64,000 bases of DNA. Source: an uncultured Gemmatimonadales bacterium (GTDB lineage Bacteria; Gemmatimonadota; Gemmatimonadetes; Gemmatimonadales; Gemmatimonadaceae). Below are positions 1,033-53,897 of the stretch, piece after piece (within the stretch, counting starts at the first letter, position 1; each line of letters starts with the position of its first letter). The translations under genes and the position numbers were made by a program. The notes under the pieces are model-generated. The model was not told the origin of the DNA and searched no databases. It was given only the letters and a program-made list of their open reading frames with translations. Location of the stretch: contig CAWKMU010000003.1 in the NCBI GenBank assembly GCA_963850905.1, positions 480,001 to 544,000 of the forward strand, in the 5' to 3' direction.

Positions 1033-3894
1033 TCACGTGCCCCCGGCGGGGGCCTTCATGAGTGTTGGGAACGTCCACGCGTAGTGATGGCCCGGATTCA
1101 TGATTGGACGGCGCGTCGCCGCGTACGCGTCCCACTGCGAGTTGCCGTATTCAGCCGACATCGCCTCGAACAAATCGTAGCCCCACGTCTCGCGCGGCCC
1201 GGGCACTTTCGGATTGGCGCCGTACGGCCACGCCGAGGGATTCTGTAGCGCGTTGAAGAGGTAGCTCAGCGCTTTCTGTACGCGCGCGCCGCGCGGCGTC
1301 GAAGGATCGAACAGGTTCGGACCACCCGTGTTGCGCACCACGTTGAGCGCCGCGGTCAGCGGATCCAGCGCGAAGTACGTGTACCAGATCCCTCCCGCTG
1401 CACGCGCGATCTCCTCGGGCATCTGCCCGTCCGGCGCGATCGATGAATCGATGTGCCGCTCGAGTCGCACGGTCTCATCGGACACACCAGCCGCGTCGCC
1501 GAGGTAGTCGTACGCCGTCACCGCACCAAAGCTGCCCCAGTCTCCCCAGTTGTTCTTTCGATCTTTGATGGGATTGACCGCTTGCGCGAGATAGACCGAT
1601 CTGACCCACTGCTTGAAAGCCTGCTGGTCTCCGGCGGCCCACCCGGGATAGTTCGAGAGCAACTCGGCGGCGATGATGAAGCCGACCCCAACTTCGGCCA
1701 TCGACAGCTGGCCATCGTAACCAGTGACACCGGTGTTGGTGTGCGCCCACGCGTTCAAGAGGCGCGCTGCGGCGTCGGCATCCTGCGGTCCGTCGCCCAG
1801 CCGATATGCGAGCGCCAGCACGTATGCGGCGTCCGCGTCCCCGGTGATGCCGCCGGTCGCGGCAAAGAATCCCTTCTGATCCTGGTAGTAGCCCGGCACG
1901 TTGTACACAGCCATAGGGTGCGGCTCACGACTGTGTACCCGGCCGACTGACGCTCGAAGCTGGTCATACGCGTCCGCCCATGGCTGGGCGTGTGCTTGGA
2001 TCTTTCCGGTCACGAACGCGATCTGCGCGGGCGTGTAGAACCCGCCGGGTCCCGCACTGTGCGTCCGAACCCGCGACCGGTAGGGGCGACGCATTGCGTC
2101 GCCCGTTGTTGTCGTTCCCTGATCCCTGACCCCTGACGGGTGATAGGAGGCAAACTGGATCATCCCCGACTCGTGCATTGGTCGGGGATCGTGGGATTCG
2201 GACGTTGTCGGCGCGCGGGCACCAAGTGCGGCGTGCACGCGATAGAGCGCGACCATGCGACGCTCCGTCACGAGCTCAGCGTGCGGAGCCACCGCTGCAC
2301 GAGCGGCGGTGTCCGAGCCCGCAACGATCACGTAGTCGTAGTCGGCATCGATCCGCTGCCAATCCAGCGAATCGAGCGGGAACGGGTCCTGCGCACCCCA
2401 TCGCTCATCGGGGTAGTACGACACGACGGGCTCCCGAAAATGCCCGAAAAACTTGTGCGTCAACGCGGGCGGATTCGTCGAGTACCGATCCTCCTCGGCC
2501 AGCAACCCCGGCACACGTCCCCCGGCATCGATCGTGTGCCAGAGCGCAAAGTGGCGAAGTGGGTCGAGCCGACCATAGCGCTCACGGTCCGCCACGATGG
2601 GCAAGAGCCGCGCAGTAGGTGGCACTGCATCGATGACCGCCCGGTATGCGCGCAGATCGGCATCGAGCTGCTGCGTTTCGTGCCGGACGACACCAAGGTG
2701 GAGCAGCGTCGCGATACACGGCACCGCGAGCCACGCGCGCTGCGAGCGCACCGGGCCGGTCGCCGTCGCGCAGAATGGCAGCACGAGCGCCGGCAGCAGC
2801 CACCGCATGTCGACAAATCCGGCGCCGTCCACCCGATAGGGGAACACGAGGAAGAGGAACACGAACACCGCCGCCGACGCCAACATCGCGTCGAGCCGCA
2901 GCGTGCGCCGATTGACGCCAATGAACGCCGCAACCGATGCGACATAGCCAGCACCCATGAGCGCCATCTGCGGATACGAGAACGAATAGAAGGGGCTCGC
3001 GAGGTTGGCGAGCTTGTTGGGGATCGACCGAAAATCCGGCGGCACGTGCGCCAGCGGTGGCTCCGGCCCGAGCGAGCGATACCAGACCAGATACATCACA
3101 CCGACCACCGCCGTCGACGCAACGAGCATCACCAATCGCGCGTCGAGCAACTCGCGGGCGCGTGCGAGCAGTGAAGTTGTTCCCTGACCCGCGACCCCTG
3201 ACCCCTGACCCCTGCTGTCGATGAGCCCCACCAAGTATGTCACCCCCAGCACGACCAACACGGTCATCGCGCCCGCCAGGTGCACGAGGAACACACCAGC
3301 AAGAGCCAGCAGCAACGGAAGACGCGCCCGCCACTGCGTCGCGTCGCGCCGCGGCCACCACGCGGCGAGCCAAAACAGCGCAACACCAATCCCTGCGACG
3401 AAATTGAAGAAGCCGATCAGCAGGTAGAAGCTCAGACTGCAGAGGACGCCGACGAGCGCCCAACCGCGTCGCTGTGGGCAGGTGGCACGCAGCAACATGT
3501 ACATGCCCGCCGGGACCACGACGACGAGCAGACAGGCCATCGCGCGCAATCCCATGGCTGGCCCCATCAGGTGGACCAACATCACACCCAACACATCGAG
3601 CGCGATGTAGGGCGTGGGAATGAACCGGACCTGCACGAAAGGCGCGGGCGTTCCAAACCAGGCACGGTCCATGAGGACATACCGGGCCAGGTTGTTGGTT
3701 GCGTCGTGGTAGGGGAAATAGGCCGCGCCACACACGACGACGAGGGTCGCCAGCAAGGCGAGGCCAACGAGCCATTCCTCCAGGAACCGGAGGCGCGACA
3801 CCCTGCGGGGAAACGCCTGGGTGCCGGGCGCCATATGGAGCGCCCTAACGGGGTCGGCCGTTGTCTGGACCATGAATTGCACCCGAGTTTGCAT
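1033..3894 (-). CDS. Multi-pass membrane protein (GT-C-like) fused to a C-terminal alginate-lyase-like domain
   Basis: 953 aa ORF. About 550 aa of hydrophobic helices (YHDATNNLARY, GFFNF), a low-complexity linker, then a soluble domain with AARLLNAWA...NNWGDWG...GQMPEEIAR...YTYFAL resembling the Alginate_lyase family. Confidence 0.65.
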   Translation of the reverse strand: MQTRVQFMVQTTADPVRALHMAPGTQAFPRRVSRLRFLEEWLVGLALLATLVVVCGAAYFPYHDATNNLARYVLMDRAWFGTPAPFVQVRFIPTPYIALDVLGVMLVHLMGPAMGLRAMACLLVVVVPAGMYMLLRATCPQRRGWALVGVLCSLSFYLLIGFFNFVAGIGVALFWLAAWWPRRDATQWRARLPLLLALAGVFLVHLAGAMTVLVVLGVTYLVGLIDSRGQGSGVAGQGTTSLLARARELLDARLVMLVASTAVVGVMYLVWYRSLGPEPPLAHVPPDFRSIPNKLANLASPFYSFSYPQMALMGAGYVASVAAFIGVNRRTLRLDAMLASAAVFVFLFLVFPYRVDGAGFVDMRWLLPALVLPFCATATGPVRSQRAWLAVPCIATLLHLGVVRHETQQLDADLRAYRAVIDAVPPTARLLPIVADRERYGRLDPLRHFALWHTIDAGGRVPGLLAEEDRYSTNPPALTHKFFGHFREPVVSYYPDERWGAQDPFPLDSLDWQRIDADYDYVIVAGSDTAARAAVAPHAELVTERRMVALYRVHAALGARAPTTSESHDPRPMHESGMIQFASYHPSGVRDQGTTTTGDAMRRPYRSRVRTHSAGPGGFYTPAQIAFVTGKIQAHAQPWADAYDQLRASVGRVHSREPHPMAVYNVPGYYQDQKGFFAATGGITGDADAAYVLALAYRLGDGPQDADAAARLLNAWAHTNTGVTGYDGQLSMAEVGVGFIIAAELLSNYPGWAAGDQQAFKQWVRSVYLAQAVNPIKDRKNNWGDWGSFGAVTAYDYLGDAAGVSDETVRLERHIDSSIAPDGQMPEEIARAAGGIWYTYFALDPLTAALNVVRNTGGPNLFDPSTPRGARVQKALSYLFNALQNPSAWPYGANPKVPGPRETWGYDLFEAMSAEYGNSQWDAYAATRRPIMNPGHHYAWTFPTLMKAPAGGT
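2080..2137 (+). repeat. GTAG-REP hairpin with GTT tract and CCCTGA heptamers (inside a CDS)
   Basis: GTAGGGGCGACGCATTGCGTCGCCC-GTTGTTGTCGTT-CCCTGATCCCTGACCCCTGAC. Confidence 0.9.
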
Positions 3895-38251: not shown

Positions 38252-39973
38252 ATGCTTCGCACATTTGCCGCGCGGTCTCCCAACCGGCCGAGGCGCGCGC
38301 TCCGCCTGTGGCAAACGTTCGGCGTCGCGTGCCTCGCGTGCCCCGCGGCCGTGGCCGCCCAGACCGGAGACCCCCTTCCACTCAAGCACCCGCCGCAGGC
38401 CACGCATCCCGCGATCACTGTGGCGGATCTCGAGACGAGGCTGTACGTCTACGCCAATGATTCGATGGAGGGCCGGCGCGCAGGCACGCTCGGCGACCTC
38501 AAGGCAACCGCATACATCGCCGCCGAATTCAAGCGTCTCAAGCTTGTGCCCGCCGGTGACAGCGGCAGCTATTTCCAGAATATCCCGCTCGTCACGTTTG
38601 CGTTCGACACGGCAGCACCGCTGGTGGTTGGCACCCAGCAGTTGACGTTCAAAAGCGACTTTCTGCCGGTGAGCCGGCGCGCCACCCAAGCAATCGACGG
38701 GTTGCAAGTCGTGTATGGCGGACAACTGTGCGACTCGGGTGCGACCCGGCTCACCGATGCCCAGACCGCGCACACGGTCGTCCTGTACAACTTGCCCGCG
38801 GACCCGATGGCGCGAGCAATGTGCTTGCAGCGGTCCGGCCGGGTGCCCCTCCCCAAGGCTTCCGGAATCGTGTTGCCGGGCCTGCAAGCGCTTCCGCCGC
38901 AGTTGGTCGACTATCTCGCGCGACCGCAGACGGTCCTTCGGCGCCCCGATGCGGACACGACGCACGGTCCGCTGCTGGTGTTGGTCACGCCGGAGGCCGC
39001 GCGCGCGTTCGTCTCGCGTCCACTCGACAGCCTGACCGTGGGCGATATCGGCGCGACGGTAGAGCGCGGGCCAGTGTCGAGCGAGACGCCCGCGGCCGCC
39101 CGCAACGTTGTTGCGATCCTGCCGGGCAGCGACCCGAAGCTCAAGAACGAGTACGTCGCCCTCGGCGCGCACAACGATCATCTCGGGGTCACGTCGCCGG
39201 TCGATCACGATTCCATTCGGGCGTACAACCAGGCGCTGCACAAGCTCGGCGCGGTCGATCCGTTCACCCAGATCGACCAGGCCAAGATCGCCACCATCCA
39301 CATCAATGTGGATTCGCTGCACCGGCTGCATCCGGCGCGCCGCGACTCGATTGACAACGGCGCAGACGACGACGGATCCGGCACAGTCGCCCTGCTCGAG
39401 ATCGCCGAGAATCTCGCGACGGACAAGCACCGACCGAAGCGCTCGATCCTCTTCGTGTCCCACACGGCCGAGGAGCTCGGCCTGTTTGGATCTGAATACT
39501 TCACCGACCATCCGACGGTCCCACGAGATTCGATCGTCGCGCAGCTCAACATGGACATGATCGGTCGCGGCGACTCTGCGGACATCGTCGGCGGCGGACC
39601 ACGGTACTTGCAGTTGGTCGGATCGCGACGCCTCTCGACGGAGCTCGGCGACCTGGTCGAGTCGGTGAACAAATCGGAGGCCGAACCGTTCGTCTTCGAT
39701 TACCAATTCGATGCGAACGGGCATCCGGAGAACATCTATTGCCGGAGCGACCACTACGAGTACGCCCGCTACGGCATTCCAATCGTGTTCTTCACGACCG
39801 GCCAACATTCCGACTACCATCAGGTGACCGATGAGCCGGAATACATCGACTACGTTCACCTGGCGCATGTGGCGTCATTCGTGCGCGATGTCGCGGTGCA
39901 GCTCGCAGATCTCGACCACCGCCCGCTCGTGGACAAGCCGAAGCCCGATCCGCATGGAGTGTGTCGCCAGTAG
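38252..39973 (+). CDS. M28-family peptidase
   Basis: NVVAILPG, GAHNDHLG, NGADDDGSG, AEELGLFGS, NMDMIG, RSDH, DYHQVTDE. Confidence 0.93.
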   Translation: MLRTFAARSPNRPRRALRLWQTFGVACLACPAAVAAQTGDPLPLKHPPQATHPAITVADLETRLYVYANDSMEGRRAGTLGDLKATAYIAAEFKRLKLVPAGDSGSYFQNIPLVTFAFDTAAPLVVGTQQLTFKSDFLPVSRRATQAIDGLQVVYGGQLCDSGATRLTDAQTAHTVVLYNLPADPMARAMCLQRSGRVPLPKASGIVLPGLQALPPQLVDYLARPQTVLRRPDADTTHGPLLVLVTPEAARAFVSRPLDSLTVGDIGATVERGPVSSETPAAARNVVAILPGSDPKLKNEYVALGAHNDHLGVTSPVDHDSIRAYNQALHKLGAVDPFTQIDQAKIATIHINVDSLHRLHPARRDSIDNGADDDGSGTVALLEIAENLATDKHRPKRSILFVSHTAEELGLFGSEYFTDHPTVPRDSIVAQLNMDMIGRGDSADIVGGGPRYLQLVGSRRLSTELGDLVESVNKSEAEPFVFDYQFDANGHPENIYCRSDHYEYARYGIPIVFFTTGQHSDYHQVTDEPEYIDYVHLAHVASFVRDVAVQLADLDHRPLVDKPKPDPHGVCRQ

Positions 39974-40469: not shown

Positions 40470-40678
40470 CGGGGTCAGGGGTCAGGGCCCGGGGGTCAGG
40501 AAACAAATCGAACGGCCGATCACAGTGCGTCGCGACCGGCCTTGGACCAGTAGGGGCGACGCACTGCGTCGCCCGCCGTTGCCGTTGTCGTTCGCGTTGT
40601 CGTTCCCTGATCCCTGGCCCCTGACCCCGCCGTTCTAATTGCCGTTGCCGTTCCCCTGACCCCTGACCCCTGACCCCG
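40470..40678 (+). repeat. Full composite element: heptamer arm - REP (40550) - inverted heptamer arm
   Basis: (GGGGTCA)n-AACAAATCG...GACCGGCCTTGGACCA-REP-GTT tract-(CCCCTGA)n. Confidence 0.88.
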
Positions 40679-40738: not shown

Positions 40739-41033
40739 TGCCCCTTGGTGTAACTGGCAACACGCCTGACTCTTGGAGGGTTTTCGGGACACCACGTCGG
40801 AAACGACGTGTGTGAATGCGCTCAAATTCGGCGAACGGTGTCACATCCCAACGCCGAGCCAAGCCGGGCCTGACCACCGGACCGGAAGGTGTAGAGACTC
40901 GACGGGCGCGACCTGACCACCGCGGGTGAAGGTCAAGACAGAGTCCGGGCCACGAACGCGCCGGCGGCGCGGCGGCGAAAGCCGAAGTGGTGGAGGGATC
41001 AGGAGAGTCCTGGTTCGAGCCCAGGAGGGGCAA
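40739..41033 (+). tRNA. tRNA-Gln(CUG) interrupted by a group I intron (exons 40739-40773 and 40996-41033)
   Basis: Joined exons fold as a cloverleaf: acceptor TGCCCCT/AGGGGCA, anticodon arm CCTGA-CTCTGGA-TCAGG, T arm CCTGG-TTCGAGC-CCAGG; U1-A72; CCA not encoded. Confidence 0.88.
40774..40995 (+). ncRNA. Group I self-splicing intron (about 222 nt, IC3-like, no homing endonuclease ORF)
   Basis: P2 hairpin with GAAA loop (40789-40813), P AAATTCGGCGAAC, Q AACGCCGAGC, R GTAGAGACTCGACGGG, S AAGACAGAGTCC, P3 GCGCTC/GGGCGC, P7 GACTC/GAGTC; exon ends in U and intron ends in G. Confidence 0.9.
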
Positions 41034-42454
41034 TGGCAGCGCGGTGGGTCGTCAGGCTTCGGCCATTCTATGAACGGAATCGACGGCCGGCCCCGGCACA
41101 TCGGGGCTGGTCGTTTTATTGGCCCCTGACGCCCCGTGCCATCGGCATCGTGCTCGGGCTAGGGCTCGGCGGAAGCGCGTGCAAGGACACGCCAGCCGCC
41201 TTTGGGTCGTCGCGCGCGGTGGCCCGGACGCATGCGGACGACCTGTTCACGAGTCTTCACCGCCGCTTCACCAACGTCGATCGCAGCCCGGAAGCAGCCG
41301 GCACTCTCGCCCGCATCGACCGGGCGGTGTTCACACCCTCGCAGGTGTTCGACGACTCGGTGCTCTGGAATGTCCTGCGGAGCGACAGCGTGCGCGTGAT
41401 GATGCTCACGGGACACGTCGCGCACGATCGGTATGTCGTCGCACAGGTGAACGAGACAGCAGCACCGCGCGAGCTCGCGGCTTCGCGCGATGAGATTCGC
41501 CTGGCACGCGTGGGACACGACCAGTATGAGTGGTCGACTTTTGTCGACCAGGTACTGGGTGCGGTGATGCCGGAGGATGTCGGCCGGATCGTGAGCTCCA
41601 TGCTCGCCGCTCCGGCCGCAACGGAGGAGACCGCGCTACACGCAGTGACGGCCGCGGCGTTCCCCAGGTCGAGCGAGGTGTTGGCGAAGGTGTTCTCCGT
41701 TGATAGCCTGCAGCGCACGCCGAGCGACGACGGCACGACCCTCGTCAACCTCGTAGTCGGCCTACATCCCGACGGGCTGCAGGCCGAATATCCCGCGTTT
41801 GCGACCTATTTGCGGACGTATCTCAATCCGGTGCGCTTGCGGTCTGTCGTTCGCGATGCGGCCGGCGGAGAGTGGTTCGATCTCGACCTCGGCGCGAATC
41901 GGCTCAGGATGCGCTTTCGCAGTGATCGTGATGGCCGCCTCGCGCCCATCGAGGGCCCACCACGGGCGATGCCCGACTCCCTCATGTTGGTCTCGGACTT
42001 TCACACCAAGGTCTGGCTCTTCTCGATCGGCATGACTGGACTCACGAGCAACGTCGCCCTTACGCATACCTCGCAGTCGCTGGGCGCCCAACTGACGTTC
42101 CGACAGGAGCCGCGTTGGCACTTGCCGCTCGCCGTCTCGCACTTCGTCAAAGGGTCCCTGCGCCGCCCCTTCGAGGGAAACGGCGCCCAGTATCGCGTGG
42201 CCGTGTCCAGCGCCGATGGGAACCACACCCTCCTCGAGCGAGAGGGCGACGTGACGGTTCAGGAAAGCATGATCATGCGGTGGTTCGGCGGCATCGGCGC
42301 ACACGCCTTTCGCGAGTTCTCCGGGCCAGCTGAAATCCAGGAGAGTGCGTATTTGGCGGCGGTGTTCAGCGCACTGCACGACGACGTCGACGCCGCGCTC
42401 ATGTCGCCCGCGACGGTCGCGGGTGACGTGGAAGCGGGAGCGAAAAAGCCCTAG
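41033..42454 (+). CDS. Hypothetical protein, possible lipoprotein
   Basis: Long ORF with normal composition; GSAC lipobox-like segment; true start probably downstream of 41033. Confidence 0.65.
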   Translation: MAARWVVRLRPFYERNRRPAPAHRGWSFYWPLTPRAIGIVLGLGLGGSACKDTPAAFGSSRAVARTHADDLFTSLHRRFTNVDRSPEAAGTLARIDRAVFTPSQVFDDSVLWNVLRSDSVRVMMLTGHVAHDRYVVAQVNETAAPRELAASRDEIRLARVGHDQYEWSTFVDQVLGAVMPEDVGRIVSSMLAAPAATEETALHAVTAAAFPRSSEVLAKVFSVDSLQRTPSDDGTTLVNLVVGLHPDGLQAEYPAFATYLRTYLNPVRLRSVVRDAAGGEWFDLDLGANRLRMRFRSDRDGRLAPIEGPPRAMPDSLMLVSDFHTKVWLFSIGMTGLTSNVALTHTSQSLGAQLTFRQEPRWHLPLAVSHFVKGSLRRPFEGNGAQYRVAVSSADGNHTLLEREGDVTVQESMIMRWFGGIGAHAFREFSGPAEIQESAYLAAVFSALHDDVDAALMSPATVAGDVEAGAKKP

Positions 42455-42698: not shown

Positions 42699-42771
42699 TG
42701 GAGCTGAGGGGAGTCGAACCCCTGACCTCTGCAGTGCGATTGCAGCGCTCTCCCAACTGAGCTACAGCCCC
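42699..42771 (-). tRNA. tRNA-Ala(CGC)
   Basis: GGGGCTGTAGCTCAGTTGGGAGAGCGCTGCAATCGCACTGCAGAGGTCAGGGGTTCGACTCCCCTCAGCTCCA; G3:U70 pair. Confidence 0.96.
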
Positions 42772-48746: not shown

Positions 48747-48880
48747 GCGTTAGCTCCCCGATAACCGAAACGCCGGTCGACATGCACCACGACTGGCCTA
48801 GGGCCGGTAGGGGCGACGCATTGCGTCGCCCGCTGTTGTCGTGGCAGTTGTTCCTGACCCCTGACCCCTGACCCCTGACC
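48672..48880 (+). repeat. Composite element with REP at 48807; left arm overlaps the 3' end of the DUF4015 gene
   Basis: GGGATCAGGGATCAGGGACCAGGGG ... REP ... (CCCCTGA)x3-4. Confidence 0.85.
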
Positions 48881-53777: not shown

Positions 53778-53897
53778 GAACAAACCGAGGGTCCGCTCGG
53801 CGCACAGTGACCGGCCCTGGACCGGTAGGGGCGACGCATTGCGTCGCCCGTTGGTGTCGTTGCGGTTGGTTCCCTGACCCCTGACCCCGACCCCTGA
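53778..53897 (+). repeat. Composite element with REP at 53825
   Basis: AACAAACCG...GACCGGCCCTGGACCG-REP-GTT tract-(CCCTGAC)n. Confidence 0.88.

Follow-up and report, generated by a model that had tools for sequence, protein, structure and literature searches.

The split tRNA gene and its surroundings

On the forward strand of the window (the whole 64,000-nucleotide stretch of DNA that was analysed, from a soil bacterium), a tRNA-Gln gene with the anticodon CUG is interrupted between U35 and G36 by an intron of exactly 222 nt (Table 1), in line with an insert of about that size in the initial annotation, which had also called it compact, ORF-less, and GC-rich. The 3′ exon opens with G36, has G as base 37, and ends in the acceptor strand and a discriminator A, with no encoded CCA. 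When the exons are joined, ARAGORN recognizes a tRNA-Gln(ctg) of 73 nt, the removal of the intron leaving a 7-base anticodon loop (CUCU/GGA) in a standard cloverleaf. A peptidase M28 gene lies upstream; on the downstream side are an ORF without a Pfam match, a tRNA-Ala(CGC) gene on the minus strand, and genes for a KGG-repeat protein and a metallo-beta-lactamase-fold protein; there were no phage-like genes among the neighbours of the split tRNA. A scan of the upstream sequence gave no sigma-70-like promoter on the + strand.

Table 1. Features of the split tRNA-Gln(CUG) gene, its intron, and its neighbours (positions in the window)
Feature	Position	Strand	Description
Peptidase M28 gene	38252–39973	+	upstream of the split tRNA
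5′ exon, tRNA-Gln(CUG)	40739–40773	+	acceptor strand, D arm, 5′ anticodon stem CCUGA, loop C32 U33 C34 U35
Group I intron	40774–40995	+	222 nt, no ORF, 65.8% G+C
P1 hairpin	40771–40789	+	40771–40777 with 40783–40789; exon U33-C34-U35 and intron UGGA pair with UUCG-GGA
P2	40790–40814	+	10 pairs, bulged U 40811, GAAA tetraloop 40800–40803
P3	40818–40823 with 40904–40909	+	100% paired
P4	40828–40833 with 40852–40857 (region 40828–40857)	+	100% paired on 20 sequences
P5	40837–40838 with 40847–40848	+	inside P4; minimal; GC to CG exchanges
P6	40859–40860 with 40888–40889 (region 40859–40889)	+	read from sequence and homologues
P6a	40864–40867 with 40882–40885	+	2 of 4 pairs compensatory
P7	40896–40900 with 40941–40945	+	100% paired; crosses P3, giving the pseudoknot
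P8	40910–40934	+	four outer pairs 100% paired, 2 compensatory
P9 three-way junction	40949–40991	+	P9 40949–40953 with 40987–40991
P9a	40957–40959 with 40969–40971	+	loop variable, stem kept
P9b	40973–40976 with 40981–40984	+	GAAA loop 40977–40980; stem and loop invariant in 20 of 20
Terminal (omega) G	40995	+	G in 33 of 33 homologues
3′ exon, tRNA-Gln(CUG)	40996–41033	+	G36 G37 A38, 3′ anticodon stem UCAGG, variable loop, T arm
Terminator-like hairpin and T run	41093–41120	+	hairpin 41093–41110; 60 bases past the tRNA; consensus scan only
tRNA-Ala(CGC)	42699–42771	−	downstream of the split tRNA

Intron boundaries from intronless relatives

The 295-base stretch was searched against 40 relatives and the window's own genome. 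In most of the relatives, bases 1–35 and 258–295 of the query match directly adjoining DNA; the intronless genes join exactly at 40773/40996 and lack the intron base for base. Among 14 loci extracted, 13 are genes of 73–74 nt that ARAGORN identifies as tRNA-Gln(ctg) and whose anticodon loop reads CTCTGGA; the remaining one (L010) is a displaced 3′ half only. The 5′ exon corresponds to the first 35 bases and the 3′ exon to bases 36–73 of the relatives' intronless tRNA-Gln(ctg), and in nine relatives (L011–L017, L019, L020) the adjoining halves are 100% identical to the two exons. Because the intronless genes equal exon 1 plus exon 2, the intron is placed at 40774–40995, and at the level of sequence the comparison confirms that the gene at 40739–41033 (+) is a tRNA-Gln(CUG) split between U35 and G36, the host and the 35/36 site that had been proposed at the outset.

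With introns allowed (-i), ARAGORN does find the split gene, as a tRNA-Lys(ctt) with i(38,222) and the intron at the canonical 37/38. Read in this way, the intron would lie one base further on (36/37) in a tRNA-Lys(CUU), and with U40774 before it and G40996 at its end it would still obey the U-1/terminal-G rule (loop CTCTT/GA). Such a reading is scarcely credible, as it is refuted by the intronless Gln(ctg) genes of the relatives, whose loop CTCTGGA reads CUG; further, the tRNA body, with U1-A72, is identical to that of tRNA-Gln genes, a separate tRNA-Lys(ctt) gene is already present in the assembly, and homologues in which the intron starts with A or G (G012, L060, and 14 others) permit only the division CTCT/GGA. 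The intron mode of ARAGORN gave Lys(ctt) for five of the seven Gln-hosted copies called and Asn(gtt) for three of five Lys-hosted genes. The host is thus treated below as tRNA-Gln(CUG).

Detection by tRNA and RNA-family models

Default ARAGORN does not call the split gene and reports only the tRNA-Ala(CGC) in the window, bearing out the prediction of the initial annotation that standard tRNA annotation would miss it, and an Rfam scan of the whole window at gathering level likewise returned nothing at the split gene and only the neighbouring tRNA-Ala. Under permissive thresholds, the Intron_gpI model (RF00028) matched 40758–40960 over its full length (model 1–253; 34.9 bits, E 2.5e-7, 471 bases searched), a score below the gathering score of 50. 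Seven classical-type tRNA introns of named bacteria, run as a control, scored 31.8–59.1 bits, and since three of these seven also fall below 50, a sub-threshold score appears typical of the lineage and is not counter-evidence. Two Gln-hosted homologues behave comparably, one (L060) scoring 34.1 bits and the other (L234) giving no RF00028 match at E 0.001. According to Williams 2020 (bioRxiv 10.1101/2020.01.27.920355), no Rfam seed sequence was bacterial. By minimum free energy, the fold of the entire precursor does not stand out (z −1.27), a measure that is uninformative for a pseudoknotted ribozyme.

Structure and covariation of the intron

The paired elements of the intron (Table 1) were evaluated on two alignments, one of 12 introns (seven in tRNA-Gln and five in tRNA-Lys; 701 pair cells) and one of 20 Gln-hosted introns (seven from genomes and 13 from metagenome contigs). 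On the 12-intron alignment, 95.9% of the cells were standard pairs, compared to 34–37% in controls in which the 3′ partners were slid by 1–3 columns, and 18 of 59 pairs changed on both sides; on the 20-intron alignment, the values were 97.6% compared to 33–37%, with 14 of 54 pairs changing on both sides. The structure outperformed all six slid controls on both alignments, none of 500 shuffles reached any of the five measures on the first alignment, and none of 500 did so on the second. Every helix was 90–100% paired among the 20 sequences, and changes on both sides occurred in P2, P3, P5, P6a, P7, P8, and P9, so that P3 and P7 both covary. Judged from these patterns in the sequences, the intron has a full group I core, including the P3/P7 pseudoknot, P4–P6, and P8.

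Among the individual helices, half of the ten P2 pairs change on both sides (98.3% of cells paired in the 12 sequences, 93.5% in the 20), and two of the six P3 pairs are compensatory (GC/UA/CG and CG/UA). P5 comprises just two to four pairs, the cells of P6 and P6a are 97.8–98.7% paired, and the P7 pair 40900/40941 is CG in four and GC in 16 of the 20 sequences. The 5′ strand of P8 carries CCUGACC (40912–40918), of which CCU (40912–40914) and ACC (40916–40918) are invariant in all 20 Gln-hosted homologues and G40915 is replaced by A in one (L262). The GAAA loops on P2 and P9b are both invariant; an 11-nt receptor motif was not visible in P5 or P8 of the intron. A pair 40827/40858, initially drawn next to P4, was dropped, as it is unpaired in eight of 12 sequences. 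A continuous P10 could not be drawn, the GGA of the 3′ exon pairing with UUC (40783–40785) only if G40786 is skipped.

Because MAFFT places P1 of the Lys introns one column out of register, so that this helix is undercounted on the 12-intron alignment, P1 was scored separately on 33 introns. In all 33, the P1 triplet abutting P2 complements the final three bases of the exon, with a G.U at the splice site, and the base at −1 is U. The triplet follows the host: GGA with UCU in 20 of 20 Gln hosts, and GAG with CUU in 13 of 13 Lys hosts (10 Lys(UUU) and three Lys(CUU)). In the window, the guide proper is GGA at 40787–40789 (U40773.G40787, the splice-site wobble; C40772-G40788; U40771-A40789), while G40786 is paired to U40774, the base that opens the intron, and the partner of this first base co-changes among the homologues (U.G, A-U, G-C, G.U). 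Each sequence element listed by the initial annotation was located where it had been placed, among them the GAAA-capped P2 (tetraloop 40800–40803) and the terminal G (G40995, kept in all 33 homologues). Its short guide able to pair with exon UCU was likewise recovered, with a correction of the register, which had been given as GGG at 40786–40788.

Distribution of the intron family

A core motif of 26 bases (GCCGAGCCAAG, 5–35 bases, GAAGGTGTAGAGACT) was used to scan a collection of species-representative genomes, and in named bacteria it was shared by at least 120 loci. The exact motif is shared with the classical Leu, Ile2, fMet, and Arg introns, indicating kinship. Settings were counted for 115 introns with the 15-base motif GAAGGTGTAGAGACT, taken from the matches listed and the relatives' genomes after the removal of eight duplicate loci. 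Among these listed and relatives' loci, the classical settings were Leu(UAA) 34/35 (n = 53), CAU 36/37 (n = 33), CAU 33/34 (n = 10), and Arg(CCU) 36/37 (n = 3), and the others were Gln(CUG) 35/36 (n = 6), Lys(UUU) 34/35 (n = 5), Arg(UCG) 34/35 (n = 2), and Tyr, Asn, and Leu 33/34 (n = 1 each).

Within the window's genus, the intron in tRNA-Gln is present in G000, G001, G002, and G004 (94–100% identical). Congener G003 has an intronless tRNA-Gln yet carries the Lys intron described below, and G005–G009 returned exon matches only. Intronless alleles occur in five of ten congeners. A member of another genus of the same family (G012) holds a 238-nt intron at the same site with 74% identity. An even sample of 401 genomes from the phylum, the window's own included, contained five with a match at E 1e-8, a lower bound as two candidates were scored per genome; these were three full introns (G000, G003, and G004) and two fragments. 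An intron fragment, L151, comes from G086. The intron carriers sit in the Gemmatimonadales (G004, which is L058, on the same contig and at the same place; L060; L031).

Metagenome contigs, searched with a stricter three-part pattern, yielded at least 121 loci, of which 115 were classed by ARAGORN. Thirteen were Gln(CUG) 35/36, five Lys(UUU), and three Lys(CUU) 36/37, and the remainder were mostly Leu(UAA) or Arg(CCU). With 13 loci among at least 121, the Gln setting recurs as a class in soil data, where it is not rare; the description of the host as atypical accordingly holds only against the four classical hosts. Among viral contigs, 37 loci carried the P9b motif, and none of the 23 classed by ARAGORN was Gln(CUG).

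A sister intron in tRNA-Lys(UUU) and a change of host

The genome of the window has three sub-threshold RF00028 matches, one of which is the Gln intron. A second is a 232-nt intron at C3 2004305–2004536 that interrupts a tRNA-Lys(UUU) gene (CUU/UUAA); it shares 79% identity with the Gln intron across ~200 bases, and its guide, GAG, matches the exon CUU. This gene is likewise missed by the default tRNA finder.

In a tree of 60 introns, from which the mosaic Lys copy of G002 (see below) was omitted, 20 Gln introns, four Lys(UUU) introns of the genus, three Lys(CUU) introns, and two viral rows, the latter long-branched, formed one clade (98/98), within which the Gln and Lys introns of the window's genus are sisters (99/99). 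A change of host tRNA within this Gln/Lys lineage is well supported. On its direction the trees disagree: the first tree pointed from Gln to Lys, larger and careful trees nested the window's Gln intron among Lys introns, and AU tests rejected neither a single clade of all Gln introns (p 0.062) nor a single clade of the four Lys introns (p 0.435).

The Lys intron of G002 combines features of both copies. Its P1 and P2 are Lys-like (15 of 18 and 25 of 28 positions identical to the Lys intron of G000), and its P8 and P9a match the Gln intron of its own genome (22 of 25 and 15 of 15, compared to 17 of 25 and 10 of 24). This pattern of identities points to a mosaic produced by recombination between the Gln and Lys copies.

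It is conceivable, though the doubts somewhat outweigh the grounds for it, that Gln(CUG) 35/36 is an undescribed setting, in which case the genus would have been caught with an ORF-less ribozyme in the course of changing its host tRNA. The Gln and Lys introns of the same genomes are each other's closest kin (99/99), their key difference is only the guide (GGA compared to GAG), and the pair in one congener appears to have since exchanged its P8–P9 part. Were this reading correct, these genomes would offer natural donor and recipient introns in which to study retargeting by reverse splicing, as well as recombination between copies, and their apparent lack of two tRNAs would be explained.

Probable need for the split genes and their possible transcription

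None of the 47 ARAGORN calls in the assembly was a further tRNA-Lys(UUU) or a true second copy of tRNA-Gln(CUG), and a BLAST of the joined exons against the assembly returned the split genes only, with no intronless Gln(CUG) or Lys(UUU) tRNA. A weak, G+C-rich 89-nt 'tRNA-Gln(ctg)' called by ARAGORN (C3 1716143–1716231), with a long extra arm, was judged false. A rough count over long open frames gave CAG as ~75% of Gln codons and AAA as ~24% of Lys codons. Given this heavy use of CAG and AAA and the lack of other copies, both split tRNA genes should be needed by the cell, with the reservation that the assembly, at 82% completeness, could lack another, intact copy. AAA cannot be decoded by tRNA-Lys(CUU) in place of tRNA-Lys(UUU) under the wobble rules.

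Identity of the split gene exceeded that of its flanks in three congeners (99% compared to 93% in G004, 97% to 83% in G001, and 94% to 72% in G002). Relative to the intronless congeners, the flanks had no nucleotide synteny within 1.5 kb.

Soil metatranscriptome contigs from four runs of four studies cover only the gene, from 40720 or 40755 to 41025–41049, with no cover beyond the gene ends in any of the four runs, which is a weak hint of transcription. The contigs matching the gene are 97–98% alike, with 3–9 differences, and all contain the intron; none of the contigs in the four runs was a spliced product assignable to the window's organism. One contig that joins 40773 to 40996 was rejected as a spliced product, since its 150-base upstream flank is unlike the window and it is therefore assigned to an intronless relative. 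The remaining joints (40864, 40905, or 40906 to 40971), with short sides (21), belong to other introns.

Proposed splicing and alternative readings

Overall, the evidence gives strong grounds for regarding the locus as a split tRNA-Gln(CUG) gene whose group I intron, 222 nt long and without an ORF, belongs to the bacterial tRNA-intron lineage (IC3 in the literature) and is predicted to splice. It is a genuine group I intron, very probably a functional one, and both its host and its site lie outside the classical set. From the anatomy of the intron and the established behaviour of group I introns, it is inferred that the precursor would be transcribed as a single RNA and that its intron would fold into P1–P9, with exon U33-C34-U35 held by the guide GGA (40787–40789) and the 5′ splice site set by the wobble U35.G. 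A free guanosine, bound at P7, would attack after U40773; the terminal G40995 would then occupy the guanosine site of P7, and the freed 3′ OH of U35 would attack after G40995. With U35 thus joined to G36, the anticodon would read CUG within a loop of the normal seven bases.

That the intron is real and splicing has been lost, leaving a tRNA pseudogene with CAG read by tRNA-Gln(UUG) or by a missing copy, is a very improbable reading. It could draw on the incompleteness of the assembly, on the presence in it of a tRNA-Gln(UUG) gene, whose product could read some CAG, on the RNA libraries, which yield only unspliced forms tied to this sequence, and on a very short P5. Decay of this kind is contradicted by an intron that remains 94–99% identical while its flanks drop to 72–93%, by changes that are compensatory and not disruptive, and by a guide, U-1, and omega G that are intact in 33 of 33 homologues; further, the sister intron lies in the sole tRNA-Lys(UUU) gene found, for which tRNA-Lys(CUU) is no substitute at AAA.

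A second alternative, unlikely but less so than the loss of splicing, is that splicing is non-autonomous, requiring a host protein or particular conditions that would tie the supply of tRNA-Gln(CUG) and tRNA-Lys(UUU) to the state of the cell. The splitting of two heavily decoding tRNAs in the same genomes would suit such a role indirectly, as would a short P5 that may lower stability and an unspliced precursor abundant enough to assemble from four RNA libraries. The locus itself contains no hint of a cofactor, with an intron devoid of an ORF and a peptidase M28 gene and unrelated genes as neighbours, and the intronless alleles in half of the ten congeners favour a passenger over a regulator. 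Likewise, the two GAAA loops and the nearly fully conserved P8 strand may act as clamps for unaided folding; in the Azoarcus intron, peripheral GAAA loops serve as tertiary clamps of the kind that allows a small tRNA intron to fold without help.

Significance

The novelty of the Gln(CUG) 35/36 case is modest: a known intron family with an ordinary mechanism in a non-classical host. For annotation, the Gemmatimonadales carriers would be scored as lacking their main glutamine-codon tRNA and their sole reader of AAA. For evolution, two different tRNAs of the same genome carry sister introns, each with a guide fitted to its own exon, which illustrates in compact form how an intron lacking a homing endonuclease reaches new sites, and one congener has a mosaic copy; it is the paired Gln and Lys copies that give the intron its moderate interest. 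In practical terms, a GC-rich and apparently complete predicted ribozyme of 222 nt, whose P5 is very short and for which 20 natural variants are available, is a convenient subject for studies of folding and splicing.

Comparison with known introns

The classical bacterial settings are tRNA-Leu(UAA), fMet, Ile(CAU), and Arg(CCU), all four classed as IC3 by a curated database according to Williams 2020 and in agreement with the hosts given by the initial annotation. The same work expanded the known tRNA settings from four to 21; its main text is without the words Gln, Lys, or CUG, and the 17 further settings are named only in an image (Table 1 of that work), and could include Gln(CUG) at position 4. 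No description of a group I intron in a bacterial tRNA-Gln was found in the literature covered, that table lying outside the coverage. The portion of the tRNAscan-SE 2.0 paper that was available mentions only fMet and Ile2 hosts. The available portion of Mohanta et al. 2017 (PMC5733544) reports 'group I introns' of 22–49 nt in cyanobacterial tRNA-Arg, Gly, and Lys, which were discounted as a precedent, being too short for group I ribozymes.

Among known systems, the tRNA-Leu(UAA) intron of cyanobacteria, plastids, and other bacteria ('Leu.3Ug') resembles the window's intron in its anticodon-loop site, U-1/terminal-G boundaries, lack of an ORF, size of ~200–300 nt, and core strings, including the 26-base motif, and in the trees it nests with Leu(UAA) introns in a starred clade, the Gln/Lys clade sitting among the Leu(UAA) introns of Eremiobacterota/Vulcanimicrobiota genomes. 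The window's intron differs in its host (Gln(CUG)), its site (35/36 compared to 34/35), its guide (GGA compared to one matching CUU), and a much shorter P5.

The Azoarcus-type tRNA-Ile(CAU) intron ('Ile2.5Ug') is comparable in its small size (202–224 nt for the 33 CAU 36/37 loci among the matches listed) and its three-base exon/guide helix. The Azoarcus intron itself has such a three-base helix and, as in the window, GAAA loops on P2 and P9. Its site (36/37), however, lies past the anticodon, and introns of this type form a separate well-supported clade (99 and 98, both starred, in two trees) and score higher in Rfam (50.5–59.1 bits compared to 34.9). With the settings of Williams 2020, the window's intron shares a sub-threshold Intron_gpI match inside a split tRNA call and the U-1/terminal-G boundaries, and it is the same kind of element.

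Related introns in other tRNA genes

Outside the window, the tRNA-Lys(UUU) gene of the same genome is interrupted, as CUU/UUAA, by a 232-nt sister of the Gln intron with the guide GAG. This split gene is the sole tRNA-Lys(UUU) found in the assembly, and the intron mode of ARAGORN miscalled it as Asn(gtt). Other non-classical hosts and sites for introns of this lineage, assigned only by ARAGORN and the rule of a U before the 5′ splice site and a terminal intron G, were Lys(CUU) at 36/37, Tyr(GUA) at 35/36, Asn(GUU) at 35/36, and Arg(UCG) at 34/35, on metagenome contigs (L194, L195, and L266) and genome contigs (L099, L103, L119, and L132). In the congener G002, which carries both Gln and Lys introns, the Lys intron is a mosaic, Lys-type in helices P1 and P2 and with P8 and P9a identical, or nearly so, to those of that genome's own Gln intron, a composition suggesting that the two copies have undergone gene conversion.

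Short repeats and truncated copies

Short intergenic tandem arrays of a heptamer (CCCTGAC/CCTGACC) occur in the window, where CCTGACC was counted 30 times against 10 expected, and arrays in inverted orientation border the spacer upstream of tRNA-Gln(CUG). The Lys locus is bordered by different short repeats, CTACTTT upstream and GGAGAAA downstream. Four truncated copies, one of them (L150) adjoined by a transposase-like ORF, look like displaced tRNA 3′ parts that integrating elements left behind. The sequence CCTGAC, contained in the P8 start point of L150 and L151, occurs in the anticodon stem as well, as its 5′ strand.

Introns, heptamer arrays, and truncated copies (G000, genome of the window; C3, contig label; L-numbers, fetched loci)
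Feature	Location	Strand	Description
Lys(UUU) gene	G000:C3:2004271-2004575 (L003 1477-1781)		split gene
Lys intron, G002	G002:C3:1050500-1051250 (L024)		mosaic
Heptamer array	window 40471-40500	-	
Heptamer array	window 40605-40677	+	
Heptamer arrays	window 3183-3210, 48853-48880, 53873-53886		
L031	318-560		entire intron and 3′ exon; 5′ exon reduced to 6 bases
L150	~1480-1600		from inside P8, exactly at CCTGACC, to tRNA 3′ end
L151 (G086, unpublished genome)	~1480-1600		as L150
L010			3′ half without intron
23S rRNA intron	G000:C3:~3193480-3194055 (L002 ~1170-1745)		group I

A group I intron in the 23S rRNA gene

A third group I intron of the genome, matching RF00028 at 33.6 bits, lies in the 23S rRNA gene directly upstream of the conserved AAGGTAGCGAAATTCC stretch. 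It contains a 182-aa ORF whose LAGFIEGEG motif leads us to read it as a putative LAGLIDADG-type ORF.
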